A stretch of 45,525 nucleotides of DNA. Origin: a virus (Duplodnaviria > Caudoviricetes). Of this stretch, positions 16,043-20,556 are shown in pieces. Position 1 is the stretch's first letter, and every line of letters starts with the position of its first letter. Below the pieces are notes generated by a model, which saw only the letters and a list, made by a program, of their open reading frames with translations, did no database searches and was not told the DNA's origin. The DNA lies in the IMG/VR virus record IMGVR_UViG_3300033168_000203, positions 1 through 45,525 of that record; one strand, written 5' to 3'. A program made the position numbers and the translations under genes.

Positions 16043-16266
16043 TGGCTGAGCTTGCCAAGTCTGCGGTGCTCAACCTCCGTGATTATGGGATCACCATCGG
16101 CGGCAAAGACTTCCCGTGGTTCGTTGGCGACAACATCAGCGTGGAAACCGAGACCCAGGGAACTGACACTGGGACGGCCTTCCGTCGCCTGCGCCTCGAT
16201 GTGCTAATCGATGGCGACGTCACCATCGAAGGCGACCCCGCGCAGCACCCGGACTACCGCCGATGA
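16039..16266 (+). CDS. Hypothetical protein
   Basis: AAGGAG RBS; coupled. Confidence 0.65.
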   Translation: MMAELAKSAVLNLRDYGITIGGKDFPWFVGDNISVETETQGTDTGTAFRRLRLDVLIDGDVTIEGDPAQHPDYRR

Positions 16267-16643
16267 TCCGCAGAGTCGACTGGACCCGACACCCCCACGT
16301 CCGCACCGGCGAACAACTCACCACCGGTGAACGTGCCGCCGACCGCGCAGTGCGCGTCATGGGATCGTGGGCGTTCCTCGCCGGACAGACCGTGCTCATC
16401 GTCGGGTGGATCATCCTCAACCTCGTTGGCATCGTCGCCCACTGGGACGAATATCCATTCATCCTGCTGAACCTGGCGTTCTCCACCCAAGCCGCCTATG
16501 CCGCACCGTTGATCTTGTTGGCGGCGCGTCGGCAAAACCAGCGTGCCGATGAGATGCAACGCGACGACCTCACCGCTGACCAAGCATCACTGGCGTTGCT
16601 GCGCAAGATCGCCGCCCACCTGAACATCGACACGGCGGCATGA
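16263..16643 (+). CDS. DUF1003 family membrane protein
   Basis: 'GERAAD....MGSW.F......WI.LN......WD.YPFILLNL.FS.QAAYAAPLIL.A..RQ'. Confidence 0.85.
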   Translation: MIRRVDWTRHPHVRTGEQLTTGERAADRAVRVMGSWAFLAGQTVLIVGWIILNLVGIVAHWDEYPFILLNLAFSTQAAYAAPLILLAARRQNQRADEMQRDDLTADQASLALLRKIAAHLNIDTAA

Positions 16644-17104
16644 CCATGCACCCCGACCGCCTACTACTTCTGTTGCTGCTGAACGAAACCGTGCTCAACA
16701 CCCACAGATTGGACTCGATTATGACTTCCCAGGAGAACCTCAACACCGACGTCACCGCACTCACCGATGGAATCGCGGCCATCGAAGCCGAGGTAGCCTC
16801 ACTCAAAGCGCAGCCTGCGGCGGCGCAGCTCGACCTGTCTGGCCTCGATGCCGTAGTGAAGCGCGTTCGTGGCGATGTGCCAGCGGCACCGCCCCAGTCG
16901 CCTGCATCTGCGGCACCTGCGGCACCCGCACCTGCAGGCCAGGCCAGCGGACCCGCCACCGGGGACAGCATCCCCGCACCTGGCGCACCATCTGCCGCAG
17001 CACCGGCTGAAGCCGCACCACCAGCCGCCCCGGCCGACGCCGCCCCGGCAGCGACCACACCCAGCGGGCTGACTCCCCCGGCAACCGGCGCCACCCCAGC
17101 CTGA
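16640..17104 (+). CDS. Coiled-coil plus Pro/Ala-rich tail protein (alternative start 16721)
   Basis: 'LNTDVTALTDGIAAIEAEVASLK' followed by a low-complexity P/A tail. Confidence 0.7.
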   Translation: MTMHPDRLLLLLLLNETVLNTHRLDSIMTSQENLNTDVTALTDGIAAIEAEVASLKAQPAAAQLDLSGLDAVVKRVRGDVPAAPPQSPASAAPAAPAPAGQASGPATGDSIPAPGAPSAAAPAEAAPPAAPADAAPAATTPSGLTPPATGATPA

Positions 17105-17150
17105 GGCGTCCGATCCGAGTTCATCGACGACCACATGGGAGTGAACACAG

Positions 17151-17282
17151 ATGGGAAAGCCCAGCAAGGGAACTCCGGCCGACAAGCGGCTGAAGGCGAA
17201 CAAAACGTCCACCGCGAAGACAGCATCGGGTGCTGCACCCAAGTTCGGCTCACCCGCCTGGAAAGCCAAGTACGGCAAGTGA
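17151..17282 (+). CDS. 43-aa Lys-rich basic peptide (not in ORF track)
   Basis: MGKPSKGTPADKRLKANKTSTAKTASGAAPKFGSPAWKAKYGK; GGGAG RBS at 17137; stop overlaps the GTG of the next gene (GTGA). Confidence 0.7.
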   Translation: MGKPSKGTPADKRLKANKTSTAKTASGAAPKFGSPAWKAKYGK

Positions 17283-18010
17283 AGGAACTGGCCGAGTGGG
17301 TTCGCGAGGAAGTGGACCCGTTCCGCGAAGCCGACCCCGCTTGGTTGGCGTCTCACCACTTCCTCCGCGACCCGGTGCGCCCCACCTACGTGGACTCCAC
17401 GATGATGTTCGCCCCCGCGGACGGGGTGATCCTCTACCAAGTGGAGGTTGAGCCCACCGACCCAGTTTTAGACATCAAGGGCCGGGACTACACGGTTCGT
17501 GACGTGCTCGCCGACCCCCATTTCGAGGGTCGAGCACTGGTCATCGGCATCTTCCTCACGTTCTACGACGTGCACACGCAACGCATCCCCTACGGGGGCA
17601 CGTTGACGTGGCGTGAGGCGCCGACACTGACCACCATCAATAAACCGATGTTGGCCGCGGAACGGCACCTGCTGAACGCGCTGCGCGTCCCCGGCGCCGA
17701 ATATAATCAATATTTGCACAAGAACGAGCGGGTCGTGAGCCGCATCGCCGCCGCTGACCTGCAGTTATATTATTATGTGGTGCAGATCGCGGACTACGAC
17801 GTGGACTGCATAACCCAGTTCAACTTGGTGCAGAACGAGAGCGTCGGCCAAGGGGACCGTTTCGGCGCCATCCGCTACGGGTCGCAGGTGGAGCTGGTCG
17901 TGCCGATCACCGAGCACTTGGAGCTGTCCACCTGCTTCGAGGTGGGGCAACACGTGGAAGCTGGACAAGACCCCCTCGTGAAGGTCAAACGTCTCAGAGA
18001 GGCAGTTTAG
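17279..18010 (+). CDS. Phosphatidylserine decarboxylase-family pyruvoyl proenzyme, no membrane anchor
   Basis: 'FLRDP', 'APADG', 'IFLTFYDVH..R.P', and self-cleavage motif 'YGSQVELVVP' (Ser codon 17882). Confidence 0.88.
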   Translation: MKELAEWVREEVDPFREADPAWLASHHFLRDPVRPTYVDSTMMFAPADGVILYQVEVEPTDPVLDIKGRDYTVRDVLADPHFEGRALVIGIFLTFYDVHTQRIPYGGTLTWREAPTLTTINKPMLAAERHLLNALRVPGAEYNQYLHKNERVVSRIAAADLQLYYYVVQIADYDVDCITQFNLVQNESVGQGDRFGAIRYGSQVELVVPITEHLELSTCFEVGQHVEAGQDPLVKVKRLREAV

Positions 18011-18924
18011 TGCTCGCCACCGATCCGACGCAGCTCCCGCATCCCACGTTTCTGATGAACTACCCGTTCAGCTTCGCGATCGACGCACCCAACAATGTGT
18101 GGATGCGTGAGGCAAAGGGCGACGAGCTGACACTGGACCTTGAGAAGGCCGGCGCCCAGTGGGGCGACTTGTACGGAACCCTCGCTGCGGACTCGTTGGT
18201 ATATATATTGCCGACACCAACCGAAGCCCTTGGTTTGCAGGACTTGGTGTTCACCGCGAACCTCGGGGTGACCATGGAACACACGGGGCAGGTGGTGCTC
18301 AGCAACTTCACCGCCACCGAACGGGTCGGTGAGGCCGCGGTGGGCAAACCGTTTCTGCAGTCGATGAACCTTGACGTGCTGGAACCTGCCGCCAAGTTCG
18401 AGGGCGAAGCGGACCTCAAACACCTGCATGACAACGTGTACGTCGGTGGCTACGGGCAGCGCAGCAGCCGGGTCGCACTGGACTGGATCGCCGAGCAGAC
18501 CGACGCCCTCATCCTGCCTGTACAGCTACAGGATGAGTACCTGTACCACCTCGATTGCTCTGTCTTCCCGCTGACCGCCACGCAGACGATGGTGTGCTGC
18601 GACATGTTCGAGGACGACGAACTCGGGGCGTTGGATGAGGAAACCGAGGTCATCGACGTGTCCGAGGACGCGGCGTACTCGGGTATCTGCAACTCGGTGC
18701 GCGTGCACAACGTGATCGTGAACCACTCCAACATTCACGACTTGAAACGCGGCACCGAGGATTACCAGCTTGAGGTGAAGAAGAACCGCGAGCTGGAGGA
18801 CATCGCCGCGAAGATGGGGTTCGAGGTGTGTTACGTGAACATCAGCGAGCTGGCGAAGGGTGGGGCGATGTTGTCCTGCCTGGTGATGCACCTCAACCGC
18901 TGGTCGTACGGCGTGGACTACTGA
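18010..18924 (+). CDS. Amidinotransferase/DDAH superfamily enzyme, ArgZ/AgrE arginine dihydrolase-like
   Basis: 'FLM..P....N.WM', 'DLVFTAN', 'ER.GE', 'FEGEAD', 'GYG.RS', 'YHLDC', 'E..KGG..LSCL' (Cys-His-acid catalytic set). Confidence 0.9.
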   Translation: MLATDPTQLPHPTFLMNYPFSFAIDAPNNVWMREAKGDELTLDLEKAGAQWGDLYGTLAADSLVYILPTPTEALGLQDLVFTANLGVTMEHTGQVVLSNFTATERVGEAAVGKPFLQSMNLDVLEPAAKFEGEADLKHLHDNVYVGGYGQRSSRVALDWIAEQTDALILPVQLQDEYLYHLDCSVFPLTATQTMVCCDMFEDDELGALDEETEVIDVSEDAAYSGICNSVRVHNVIVNHSNIHDLKRGTEDYQLEVKKNRELEDIAAKMGFEVCYVNISELAKGGAMLSCLVMHLNRWSYGVDY

Positions 18925-18982
18925 ATATATATTTGTGTGGACCCATCGCGCCTGCCTGCAATATATAATAAGGATTGCGCGC

Positions 18983-19225
18983 TCATGCCCGACCTCGCGC
19001 GATGCGAACTGTGCTGATCGACAGGCCGGACTGCTCGGCCGCCTTGGCCAAGCCAATCCGGTCGGCGAGCGTGGCGATCGCGGTGTCTCGGAACTGGCGG
19101 GCTTCGCGTACCTTTGCTTCGCCGTTGGCGATGTAGGCCGTTGCTCCTTGTACTGCCGCGAGACCGGTGAGCTTCTTCAATGCGTCCAGGGTGGCTGGCG
19201 TGTCTGGTGTTGGTGTAGTTGCCAT
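18983..19225 (-). CDS. Small HTH protein
   Basis: 'RDTAIATL..RIGLAKAAEQSGLSISTVRI'. Confidence 0.7.
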   Translation of the reverse strand: MATTPTPDTPATLDALKKLTGLAAVQGATAYIANGEAKVREARQFRDTAIATLADRIGLAKAAEQSGLSISTVRIARGRA

Positions 19226-19272
19226 GCCACCATGTTACCACGTTGGCATGCTACGGGTGTCATGCTATCGGC

Positions 19273-19419
19273 ATGACACTGAACCAGTTCCGCCGGGCGC
19301 TCTACAAGACCCAACGGACCATCGGAGACGGGCAGGCCGCGAAGCGTGGCCCCAACGTTTACGCCAGGCGCATCGTCCGCAGGCGGGTCACTCGTGCGGC
19401 GTTTAGGCTGCTGCGATGA
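19273..19419 (+). CDS. 48-aa Arg-rich basic protein
   Basis: MTLNQFRRALYKTQRTIGDGQAAKRGPNVYARRIVRRRVTRAAFRLLR; divergent from the HTH gene. Confidence 0.65.
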   Translation: MTLNQFRRALYKTQRTIGDGQAAKRGPNVYARRIVRRRVTRAAFRLLR

Positions 19420-19619
19420 CACGCCAGCCGATTCCGGCTCTGGGTCTGGCGCAGGCGCTGGGATGGCTGTCGTACACCTGCCGGTGCGGGAATCTAGTGC
19501 CGCACGGTCTGCCATCGAAGTACTGCCCAGGATCGGACGTAGAAGGGCCGCTCTGGGCTGAGTACTTGGCGGTGGCTCACGACCACGTCCACTGGGCAAC
19601 TGTCACGCCGCCCTCTTAG
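19416..19619 (+). CDS. Small protein with CRCG..HGL..CPGSD motif
   Basis: 'CRCGNLVPHGLPSKYCPGSDVEGPL'. Confidence 0.55.
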   Translation: MTRQPIPALGLAQALGWLSYTCRCGNLVPHGLPSKYCPGSDVEGPLWAEYLAVAHDHVHWATVTPPS

Positions 19620-19628
19620 ACTGCTGCG

Positions 19629-19880
19629 ATGAAAGCAACCCGAGTGGACCAAGACGGATCGGTGCACTGCCCCAACTGCAACGGCACCTCGTTCGCCATG
19701 AAGCGGTCCGTCAAAGGCAAGATCACCGCCGGGATCGCCGCCCCGAAGCGGGTGCACTGCATGGGCTGCGGTGCCAACCTCAAACCAGGCAAGGGCAAGC
19801 CGGGCAAGCCAACGTTCGCGGAGATTGAGCAGCAGATCATCGCACGCAAAGCCGCCGAGGACACTCACGGCACCGACTGA
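19629..19880 (+). CDS. Zn-ribbon protein
   Basis: 'CPNCNG...CMGCG'; TAGACT -10 6 nt upstream (leaderless). Confidence 0.7.
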   Translation: MKATRVDQDGSVHCPNCNGTSFAMKRSVKGKITAGIAAPKRVHCMGCGANLKPGKGKPGKPTFAEIEQQIIARKAAEDTHGTD

Positions 19881-19881
19881 T

Positions 19882-20196
19882 ATGAGGTGGACTGTGAACC
19901 CACAACCAACCTCACGATGGGGCCGCGGCAGCACCCGTGCTTCACGCAAGCAACGCGCGGCAGTGCTGCGCCGCTACCCAACCTGCTACATCGCCGGCCC
20001 ACACTGCACCACCACCAGCACCGAGGACGACCACGTGACCCCACTGTCACAGGGCGGCACCGACCACATGGACAACCACCGCGGAGCATGCACCGTCTGT
20101 CACCGTGAGAAGTCACAACAGGAAGCAGCCACAGGCGCCACACGCTGGCACGCAGGCGCACGACACCCGGTTGAGCAGCATCCCGGTTTGAGCTGA
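19882..20196 (+). CDS. Terminase-associated HNH endonuclease
   Basis: 'C......C.....DDHVTPLSQGGTDHMDNHRGACTVCHREKS..EA'; 'HPGL' end; upstream of terminase. Confidence 0.88.
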   Translation: MRWTVNPQPTSRWGRGSTRASRKQRAAVLRRYPTCYIAGPHCTTTSTEDDHVTPLSQGGTDHMDNHRGACTVCHREKSQQEAATGATRWHAGARHPVEQHPGLS

Positions 20197-20480
20197 ACCG
20201 AGACGTTTAGCAATACAATATATATAATGGTTGAGCCGAACTGAGGCGTTTAGCAATAATATATATAATGGTTGGCGATTAGGTATTGCTGCAATATATG
20301 TAATAAATAGGGTCCTGACCGGCGAGCAATAGTTATTATATAATAACCGCACTTCCGGTTAGCAAATTGCTATTAATATATAGCAAGGGTACCCGCCTAG
20401 CAATTATTAATATATATCCCGACCGGGTGTTGCTATTATAACTATATTAACTGCCCGCCATTATAGTTATAATATATAAA
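20188..20480. repeat. AT-tract array (~8 units) with a ~42-bp tandem duplication
   Basis: 20188-20230 and 20231-20271 are near-identical; tracts mostly start with (T)AGCAA(T) or TTGCT and are separated by GC-rich spacers. Confidence 0.9.
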
Positions 20481-20556
20481 GGGGTAGGGGGGGCACCCCC
20501 ACCACCCACCCGGCGGACACCGCTCAGTTTGGCCGCTTCGCCCGTGCGAGCGGTTT
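20481..20556. other. Candidate cos/packaging region
   Basis: Between HNH and terminase small subunit, with G-run/C-run. CGCTCAGTTT (20521-20530) is only a guess for a 3' overhang. Confidence 0.4.

Follow-up and report, generated by a model that had tools for sequence, protein, structure and literature searches.

What a decarboxylase-like enzyme and an arginine-hydrolase-like enzyme could be making together in a phage is the question raised by the virus record IMGVR_UViG_3300033168_000203 (Duplodnaviria; Caudoviricetes). Its whole stretch of 45,525 nucleotides, referred to here as the window, is a 45.5-kb provirus that is 56% complete. At positions 17151–18924 it contains a cassette of three open reading frames (ORFs) on the plus strand, encoding a basic peptide, a protein of the phosphatidylserine decarboxylase (PSD) family, and a pentein resembling the arginine dihydrolases ArgZ and AgrE. 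The genes of the two enzymes constitute one widespread, co-inherited unit. It is tentatively proposed, with a confidence that falls somewhat short of even, that this pair converts arginine into oligo-agmatine, short chains of agmatine units linked through guanidine; bacteria would export this product, and the phage would use it intracellularly as a DNA-binding polycation. The features of the cassette are as follows.

17137..17141, plus strand: GGGAG ribosome-binding-like site, 9 nt 5' of the peptide ATG and kept in three kin proviruses
17151..17282, plus strand: gene of a 43-aa Lys-rich peptide (ORF; third-position variation; ratio of nonsynonymous to synonymous substitution, dN/dS)
17279..18010, plus strand: gene of a predicted soluble PSD-fold pyruvoyl decarboxylase, 243 aa (Pfam, phrog_12670, fold, conservation)
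18010..18924, plus strand: gene of an ArgZ-like pentein, 304 aa (Pfam, NCBIfam, phrog_12759, fold, alignment)

A co-inherited pair of enzymes

The three ORFs overlap by GTGA (17279–17282) and TAGTG (18008–18012), as the first-pass annotation of this DNA had read them. Across four kin proviruses, dN/dS is 0.08–0.19 for the PSD-family gene, 0.10–0.17 for the pentein gene and 0.07–0.21 for the peptide gene, and purifying selection acts on all three. Both enzymes match PHROG families without known function, namely phrog_12670 (PSD) and phrog_12759 (pentein).

That annotation had proposed the two enzymes as a functional pair, an idea to be abandoned if the genes did not keep company elsewhere; in fact they co-occur almost without exception. 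Of 129 GTDB matches to the PSD profile, the best 80 were used, with record titles from about ten phyla and several loci per genome in places. The pentein lies within 500 nt of the PSD gene at 73 of these 80 loci, always downstream, and elsewhere in the genome at the remaining seven (the case of L069 rests on the unpublished genome G006). All 40 IMG/VR loci, many of which are kin, have the pentein within 3 kb of the PSD gene, 36 of them in reverse order. When the search started instead from the pentein, taking the best 80 of 530 metagenome matches and excluding 7 kin, 65 of the other 73 had room for a neighbour, and the PSD gene was adjacent in every one (65/65). Among GenBank phages, Campylobacter records number 39 for the PSD protein and 40 for the pentein, with the two genes far apart; each protein is also found in 6 Bacteroides records, where the genes are adjacent. 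Mirror trees of the two proteins correlate with a rho of 0.90 over 110 loci, a shared history that kinship alone would give and that is not counted as co-evolution.

The unit is mostly bacterial, and the earlier view of it as a phage-specific system is thus not upheld. The window copy was probably gained from a host, separately from the T4-like copies, because it has the bacterial gene order and its nearest neighbours in an unrooted tree are actinobacterial. Three copies of the unit are present within one Allokutzneria genome. The fungal endosymbiont Candidatus Glomeribacter (L038) keeps the PSD gene, the pentein and an ABC-exporter match.

The predicted PSD-fold decarboxylase

The PSD-family protein matches PF02666 (E 5.5e-27; 95 bits against a gathering score of 22) and carries both the DVH motif (97–99) and the GS self-cleavage motif ascribed to it at first sight, the latter as YGS with Ser202 (codon 17882–17884). 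Of its key residues, His99 and Gly201-Ser202 are each retained in 123/123 distinct homologues (80 bacterial and 43 viral) and Asp48 in 122/123. The lack of a membrane anchor is likewise borne out: 19-residue hydropathy peaks at 1.06, and at -0.13 over the first 45 residues. Hydropathy over the first 45 residues ranges from -0.86 to 0.79 in 124 PSD sequences, none of which has a hydrophobic N-terminus, an amphipathic helix being outside the reach of this test. An acidic loop, QIADYDVD (169–176), is specific to the subfamily, with Asp or Glu at position 172 in 123/123 homologues and at position 174 in 118/123. Lipid PSDs are not known to carry an acidic loop at this position. All 14 NCBIfam PSD models score under their cut-offs, the best reaching 74 bits against 183. 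Bacterial and archaeal PSDs of PF02666, such as the E. coli enzyme (6L06, 7CNW), have the Asp-His-Ser self-cleavage set in common with the window family, which differs from them in having no membrane anchor, an acidic pocket loop, scores under the curated cut-offs and another gene context. The suggestion of a PSD fold repurposed away from lipids very probably holds. Judged from these sequence features, a role as a lipid enzyme is very unlikely, and the protein is read as a putative decarboxylase of a cationic amino acid.

For the predicted structure (pLDDT 81), a fold search finds E. coli PSD, PsiD and Ao-ADC1; in Foldseek, Ao-ADC1 and PsiD reach E 1.5e-3 and 3.3e-4, and 9JF5 aligns with Z 9.1 and rmsd 5.2 over 162 residues. 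VIA-align gives EIIA-Glc a Z of 11.6 and PSD 10.6; EIIA-Glc was set aside as a rival fold, being level with PSD since the solved PSDs are split chains. According to PMC12904898, Ao-ADC1 combines the PSD fold with pyruvoyl-dependent decarboxylation of arginine and lacks PSD activity. Ao-ADC1 (Aspergillus oryzae, PDB 9JER/9JF5) and PsiD (PDB 8X4Q) share with the window family the PSD fold and pyruvoyl chemistry on a free amino acid. Nevertheless, Ao-ADC1 is a 483-aa fungal protein of about 17% identity whose N-terminal region is helical and whose motif is GGST, whereas the window family has 240 aa, [YFW]GSQ and the QIADYDV loop. Because of this low identity and the different length and motifs, the window family probably represents a separate repurposing of the PSD fold.

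One member of the family (P0244) has a LAGLIDADG intein inserted at the motif beside the catalytic His. Among longer proteins, 7999 scored candidates yielded an intein-bearing PSD and no PSD-pentein fusion, which is weak evidence.

The ArgZ-like pentein

The partner protein matches PF19420 (E 4.6e-11) and the NCBIfam model Arg_dihydro (NF052232; E 2.2e-26), with 92.7 bits on the latter against a curated equivalog-domain cut-off of 450; other phage ArgZ-like proteins score 247–274 bits on the same model. No match to the agmatine deiminase family PF04371 is found in the pentein, although separate neighbour genes do match it. ArgZ and AgrE are the nearest solved relatives in sequence as well as in fold. 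In the fold search, they give template-modelling (TM) scores of 0.76–0.79, ahead of DDAH (0.69–0.70), amidinotransferases (0.62–0.69) and agmatine deiminases (0.52–0.57). Amidinotransferases rank 39 or lower, with E 3e-10 or worse compared with 1e-18 for ArgZ. The window protein differs from the L-arginine amidinotransferases AGAT, SxtG and HsvA in its closest fold and in having Asn at position 84. Amidinotransferases carry Asp at the equivalent position.

The key residues Asn29, Asp78, Asn84, Arg105, Glu131, Arg151, His180 and Asp182 align with ArgZ Asn22, Asp65, Asn71, Arg90, Glu118, Arg139, His168 and Asp170, and Cys290 (codon 18877–18879) completes the set. The Cys/His/acid set recognized by the first-pass annotation is thus kept by the combined evidence of fold, alignment and conservation, and the motifs it named do align to ArgZ/AgrE, the nearest predicted fold. 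Among 112 PSD-linked penteins, Arg105 is retained in all, Asn84 in 110, Arg151 in 108 and Cys290 in 106; in the catalytically intact copies, Arg151 is present in 106/106. On the basis of our alignment, Arg105 and Arg151 presumably bind the substrate carboxylate. The roles of the ArgZ residues other than Asn71 are likewise taken here as presumed. As regards Asn71, the title of PDB 6JUZ states that N71S of ArgZ traps an intermediate, and pentein arginines are described in PMC11659421 as holding the substrate carboxyl. With the catalytic and carboxylate-binding residues kept, the protein is predicted to be ArgZ-like with an arginine-type substrate, as had been supposed.

ArgZ (Sll1336) and AgrE (Alr4995; PDB 6JUY-6JV1, 6LRF-6LRH) share with the window pentein a common fold, 25–27% identity and a catalytic Cys near the C-terminus. 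Unlike them, it is a stand-alone protein without ornithine cyclodeaminase and is always tied to a PSD-fold gene. Its family is further set apart by Asn28, Gln77, Glu133, a 20-residue insert and an HLNRxSY tail. Among the intact copies, Asn28 (105/106), Gln77 (102/106) and Glu/Asp133 (104/106) replace Ile21, Pro64 and Ala120 of ArgZ, which also lacks the insert of about 20 residues (around 244–268). The same gains are seen in comparison with two phage ArgZ-like proteins. Stand-alone proteins of Ralstonia phage RsoM2USA and Xanthomonas phage phiXF1 (L179, L180) are far nearer ArgZ, at 247–274 bits, and have no PSD match.

The order of the two reactions may be read from a group of sister phage penteins (L164-L176, L178) in which Phe replaces Arg151 and a PF02666 protein is found in 0/5 records, three of them at least 90% complete. 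These sister proteins possibly act on an already decarboxylated substrate. The joint loss of clamp arginine and decarboxylase suggests that the PSD-linked pentein acts on a carboxylated substrate, before decarboxylation. A route from arginine through agmatine to putrescine by way of the pentein, put forward earlier as a variant, is disfavoured, since a linked PSD always goes with both carboxylate-binding arginines in the pentein. No polyamine genes were found near the PSD-less phage penteins or the two ArgZ-like phage genes.

Six of 69 bacterial penteins lack the catalytic Cys together with other active-site residues; they belong to two Streptoalloteichus and four Allokutzneria loci (L031, L050, L033, L060, L062, L063) and keep a full reading frame beside an intact decarboxylase. 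Their dN/dS is 0.13–0.58, compared with 0.11–0.37 for live actinobacterial pairs. These proteins point to a non-catalytic tie between the partners, such as that of a scaffold or maturation partner, but they could also reflect slow decay. An EamA transporter gene lies upstream in L031 and L050, and a fatty-acid desaturase and DUF885 surround the Allokutzneria dead copies.

Exporters and agmatine-deiminase-family neighbours

In bacteria, an exporter is a near-obligate third gene. Of 56 metagenome loci with room for one, 53 have it immediately after the pair (MATE in 45, ABC in 8). Within 3.5 kb of the GTDB loci, MATE is found in 36/80 and an ABC match in 23/80 (one ABC upstream on the other strand), and a strict same-strand test gives 45/66. 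Neither MATE nor ABC exporters occur in the viral loci (0/51). A gene of the agmatine-deiminase family adjoins the pair in 8/80 bacterial and 14/51 viral loci, often between the PSD gene and the pentein; all those tested score under the AguA cut-off. Proteins of this family can be specific for other guanidino polyamines (PMC13625781). An amidase-family gene adjoins one copy of the pair; members of this family may act as N-carbamoylputrescine amidohydrolases (PMC12283126). The neighbours examined include no recurring lipid gene, and an Rfam riboswitch scan of 12 bacterial loci returned only a tRNA.

In three actinobacterial loci (L017:860-9676, L028:959-9676 and L051:8019-16711), the pair adjoins a biosynthetic cluster with a GNAT gene, an acyl-CoA ligase-aldehyde dehydrogenase fusion, a TPP enzyme and a ketosynthase-like gene, to which L051 adds a PLP decarboxylase and an S-adenosylmethionine (SAM) decarboxylase. 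The phage locus L095:11-7702 contains two near-identical penteins, radical SAM, agmatine deiminase, GTP cyclohydrolase I, PSD, dCTP deaminase and SAM decarboxylase genes; here the pair adjoins DNA modification genes of the 7-deazaguanine type.

Bleomycin-type gene clusters

A GenBank note that lists AF210249_12 as similar was the lead to three Streptomyces loci with a PSD gene before nonribosomal peptide synthetase (NRPS) genes; AF210249 is, we take it, the bleomycin cluster. In G003 (C10:87651-88628; L091), the PSD gene and the pentein are 58 kb apart, and between them lies a bleomycin-type NRPS and polyketide synthase cluster that includes BlmA- and BlmB-like genes; directly after blmB come the pentein and an ABC exporter. 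In G098 (C1:69746-70708 and 129346-130074), BlmB scores over the curated cut-off, the pentein follows it directly and the PSD gene is found 58.6 kb upstream, between a BlmT-like sulfate-transporter gene and the NRPS genes. This position is the place of orf28 in the bleomycin cluster described in PMC7017467. The G098 proteins are 48% (PSD) and 52% (pentein) identical to those of the window. The same two cluster ends are found on separate contigs in G001 and G002. The bleomycin-cluster genes, orf28 and the one that separates blmB from the ABC exporter, thus differ from the window pair in standing at opposite ends of a 58-kb cluster, which they bracket as though it had been inserted into the cassette.

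Among 401 Streptomyces genomes, with five to six candidates scored per genome, three carry a BlmB-like gene and two carry either enzyme (G002 and G098), both among those three; G002 was the chosen centre of the sample and G098 is the independent case. Two further Streptomyces loci (L054, L077) have the pair outside bleomycin-type clusters.

Bleomycin B2 carries one agmatine unit, B4 two and B6 three, the units being joined via guanidine, with C5H11N3 added per step. To form such a guanidine link, ammonia must leave and an amine must attack, a chemistry of the pentein type. The terminal amine varies among bleomycins, and B2 is a main bleomycin (PMC7017467). The searched literature, to which most subscription journals and supplements do not belong, held no statement on the structures or biosynthesis of B4/B6, no published function for orf28 or the post-blmB gene, and no paper on the PSD-pentein pair.

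A proposed oligo-agmatine cycle

In the proposed cycle, the decarboxylase would cleave itself at Gly201-Ser202 to form its pyruvoyl group and convert arginine to agmatine. The pentein would bind a second arginine by its carboxylate (Arg105, Arg151), and Cys290 would displace ammonia to give a covalent thiouronium. The primary amine of agmatine, rather than water, would resolve this intermediate to N-(guanidinobutyl)arginine. The decarboxylase, with a pocket lined by Asp172/Asp174/Asp176, would then remove the carboxyl and expose a new primary amine, each cycle adding C5H11N3 (113.095 Da). The two proteins might carry out these steps as a physical complex. Agmatine is placed in the pathway because of the agmatine-deiminase neighbours and the Ao-ADC1 precedent, an exported product because of the near-obligate MATE or ABC exporter in bacteria, and a changed pentein chemistry because of the residues Asn28, Gln77 and Glu/Asp133 gained over ArgZ. 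Alternating condensation and decarboxylation fits a carboxylate-seeking pentein, the signs of agmatine and a product that is pumped out, and would make the B4/B6 tails. As the phage has no exporter, its product would remain intracellular, and DNA condensation would be its simplest use, which is helped by the position of the pair behind the capsid gene in 19 T4-like loci.

Several points weigh against oligo-agmatine synthesis. The whole catalytic set of ArgZ is kept, including Asn84 (110/112), and where an active site is conserved the reaction is usually unchanged. The B4 and B6 structures enter the argument as general background. Bleomycins with putrescine and spermidine tails also exist, so the cluster link fits a putrescine product too. 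The ABC pump in bleomycin clusters may serve the antibiotic, and in the tallysomycin-type genome G011 the pair is missing near tlmB but present twice elsewhere, so that the contrast is not clean. Some neighbours suit ordinary polyamine metabolism: genes of the spermidine-synthase family and ArgB occur in 3/80 GTDB loci (alphaproteobacterial), the former also in L272, a PotD-like gene in six related loci and SAM decarboxylase in L051 and L095. The six dead-pentein loci imply that the decarboxylase can be useful without pentein catalysis. The loci are not independent, several coming from one genome or one phage group. Finally, when the bleomycin cluster was introduced into S. flavoviridis and expressed, the host rather than the cluster supplied the tails, as reported in PMC5983701.

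Alternative explanations

The most serious alternative, and a doubtful one still, is the route that the first-pass annotation favoured, from arginine through ornithine to putrescine, in which the pentein would be a stand-alone arginine dihydrolase and the PSD-fold protein a new pyruvoyl ornithine decarboxylase, perhaps acting on arginine too. The phage would gain putrescine for replication or packaging, and B4/B6 would be side products or be made elsewhere. The complete ArgZ active site, the closest fold being ArgZ/AgrE and the kept carboxylate clamp all speak for it, as do neighbouring genes for spermidine synthase, SAM decarboxylase, ArgB and a PotD-like protein; phages carry many enzymes of putrescine and spermidine metabolism (PMC9992855), and the related Rv2323c is reported to be required both to grow on arginine and to make proline from it (PMC4569260). 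Although it remains a strong rival, it fails to explain the position of the genes in bleomycin clusters, why bacteria almost always add an exporter of one of two unrelated types, why genes of agmatine deiminases lie within the unit, why the spread is rare, patchy and multi-copy like that of secondary metabolism (2/401 Streptomyces), and why Asn28, Gln77 and Glu133 were gained and conserved. If agmatine itself were the hub, the PSD-fold protein would be an arginine decarboxylase whose product is exported, attached (as in bleomycin B2) or turned into putrescine by AguA and/or the pentein, the latter perhaps being chiefly a scaffold or maturation partner. This is unlikely, for although the Ao-ADC1 precedent, the AguA neighbours, the amidase-family gene beside one copy, the six loci with a Cys-less pentein in intact frame (dN/dS 0.13–0.58) and the standing of B2 as a main bleomycin (PMC7017467) suit it, the catalytic Cys and both carboxylate-binding arginines are kept in 106/112 penteins, and agmatine or N-carbamoylputrescine needs neither arginine.

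Classical amidinotransfer appears improbable. Here the amidino group of arginine would pass to an amine from the decarboxylase, giving diguanidinobutane from agmatine or modified ethanolamine-type head groups. Database labels of 'amidinotransferase', exporters that suit a guanidino product, and HsvA, a polyamine amidinotransferase of the same superfamily, are consistent with it; on the other hand, the fold search places amidinotransferases far below ArgZ (E 3e-10 or weaker vs 1e-18), and Asn84 stands where they have Asp. There is still less room for the least probable case of all, a true phosphatidylserine decarboxylase with an unrelated partner or modification of the adjacent basic peptide. 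It can draw on the PF02666 match, E. coli PSD as the top solved relative, the GenBank annotation and the translational coupling of the peptide, yet the NCBIfam PSD models score far under cut-off, the family's N-termini lack a membrane anchor, the loop lining the pocket is acidic, the examined neighbours show no recurring lipid gene, and the peptide has one Arg and is missing from nearly all loci. The lipid head-group and peptide alternatives raised at the outset are unlikely for the same reasons.

Oligo-agmatine and the earlier putrescine proposal would both, if either were true, represent an undescribed arginine pathway from two repurposed folds. Phages and viruses are reported to carry PLP-dependent and pyruvoyl ornithine and arginine decarboxylases (ODC/ADC), arginase, AdoMetDC and the chlorovirus ADC-AIH-NCPAH-HSS route (PMC9992855), which resemble the present case as virus-borne, arginine-derived polycation metabolism. 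The enzymes treated in that source include neither fold, and the words 'phosphatidylserine', 'dihydrolase' and 'amidinotransferase' are absent from its main text. On either of these two readings, the pair goes under the wrong labels, 'phosphatidylserine decarboxylase' and 'amidinotransferase/DDAH', in hundreds of genomes, among them those of gut Bacteroides phages and of every fletchervirus matched. A putrescine product would add a new decarboxylase class and a new route to polyamine biology. Oligo-agmatine would be a new kind of natural polycation with its own pathway and a new pentein reaction (amine for water); it would also give functions to two orphan bleomycin-cluster genes and make the origin of the B4/B6 tails, a long-standing gap, testable. 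Seen broadly, the pair could be an iterative synthase whose product is nature's analogue of the synthetic polyguanidine biocides. Bacteria from about ten phyla would export this product, the tails of bleomycins B4/B6 and phleomycins E/G would derive from it, and phages would have taken it over several times to condense DNA, a picture that is plausible but held at rather less than even confidence.

The basic peptide and the surroundings of the cassette

The 43-aa peptide is Lys-rich with a net charge of +10 and a single Arg. In three kin proviruses, 7 of the 11 variable sites in the 129 nt upstream of the PSD gene fall on third codon positions of the peptide frame. The peptide has no match in GenBank phages or in the Atlas at 0.9. 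A K-rich small ORF is found upstream in 6/46 viral loci, as three unrelated sequences and with three of the six being kin, and clusters of ORFs of at least 36 aa from bacterial loci reveal no recurring upstream peptide. The gene is real but local to the phage group of the window, and the peptide is probably a mere leader of the translational chain; the initial notion of a three-gene system is not sustained, as the peptide is missing from almost all other loci. A RiPP-like precursor would be a conserved peptide beside the enzymes across loci, a pattern not seen here. The peptide was also set aside as an enzyme substrate, having one Arg and no recurrence in phage or bacterial loci. The start of the PSD gene is placed at GTG 17279 because homologues begin there and the variation among kin follows third positions of the peptide frame; a longer start at ATG 17135 (291 aa) was rejected on these grounds.

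The window DNA occurs in rock metagenomes, and no RNA datasets are listed as carrying it. Its genes include portal, capsid, tape-measure and integrase (Pfam search), its terminase is nearest to those of Streptomyces phages SF1 and VWB (47–48%), and the provirus is of actinobacterial type. A scan of 16400–19400 for promoter and terminator consensus gave no match. The cassette belongs to a single block (16264–18932) that is 93% identical among kin and followed by a variable stretch (18933–19845). Upstream lie a DUF1003 membrane protein gene (16640–17104) and one for a 154-aa protein with a short coiled coil and an Ala/Pro-rich tail (16263–16643); a small HTH-like gene follows on the opposite strand (18983–19225, minus). 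The cassette had been placed just upstream of the terminase. It does lie on that side, within a stretch of small genes, ending 1.6 kb 5' of the small terminase gene (20529), but small ORFs and an HNH gene intervene, and the small terminase gene is preceded by an AT-rich segment (20000–20499; GC 0.49).

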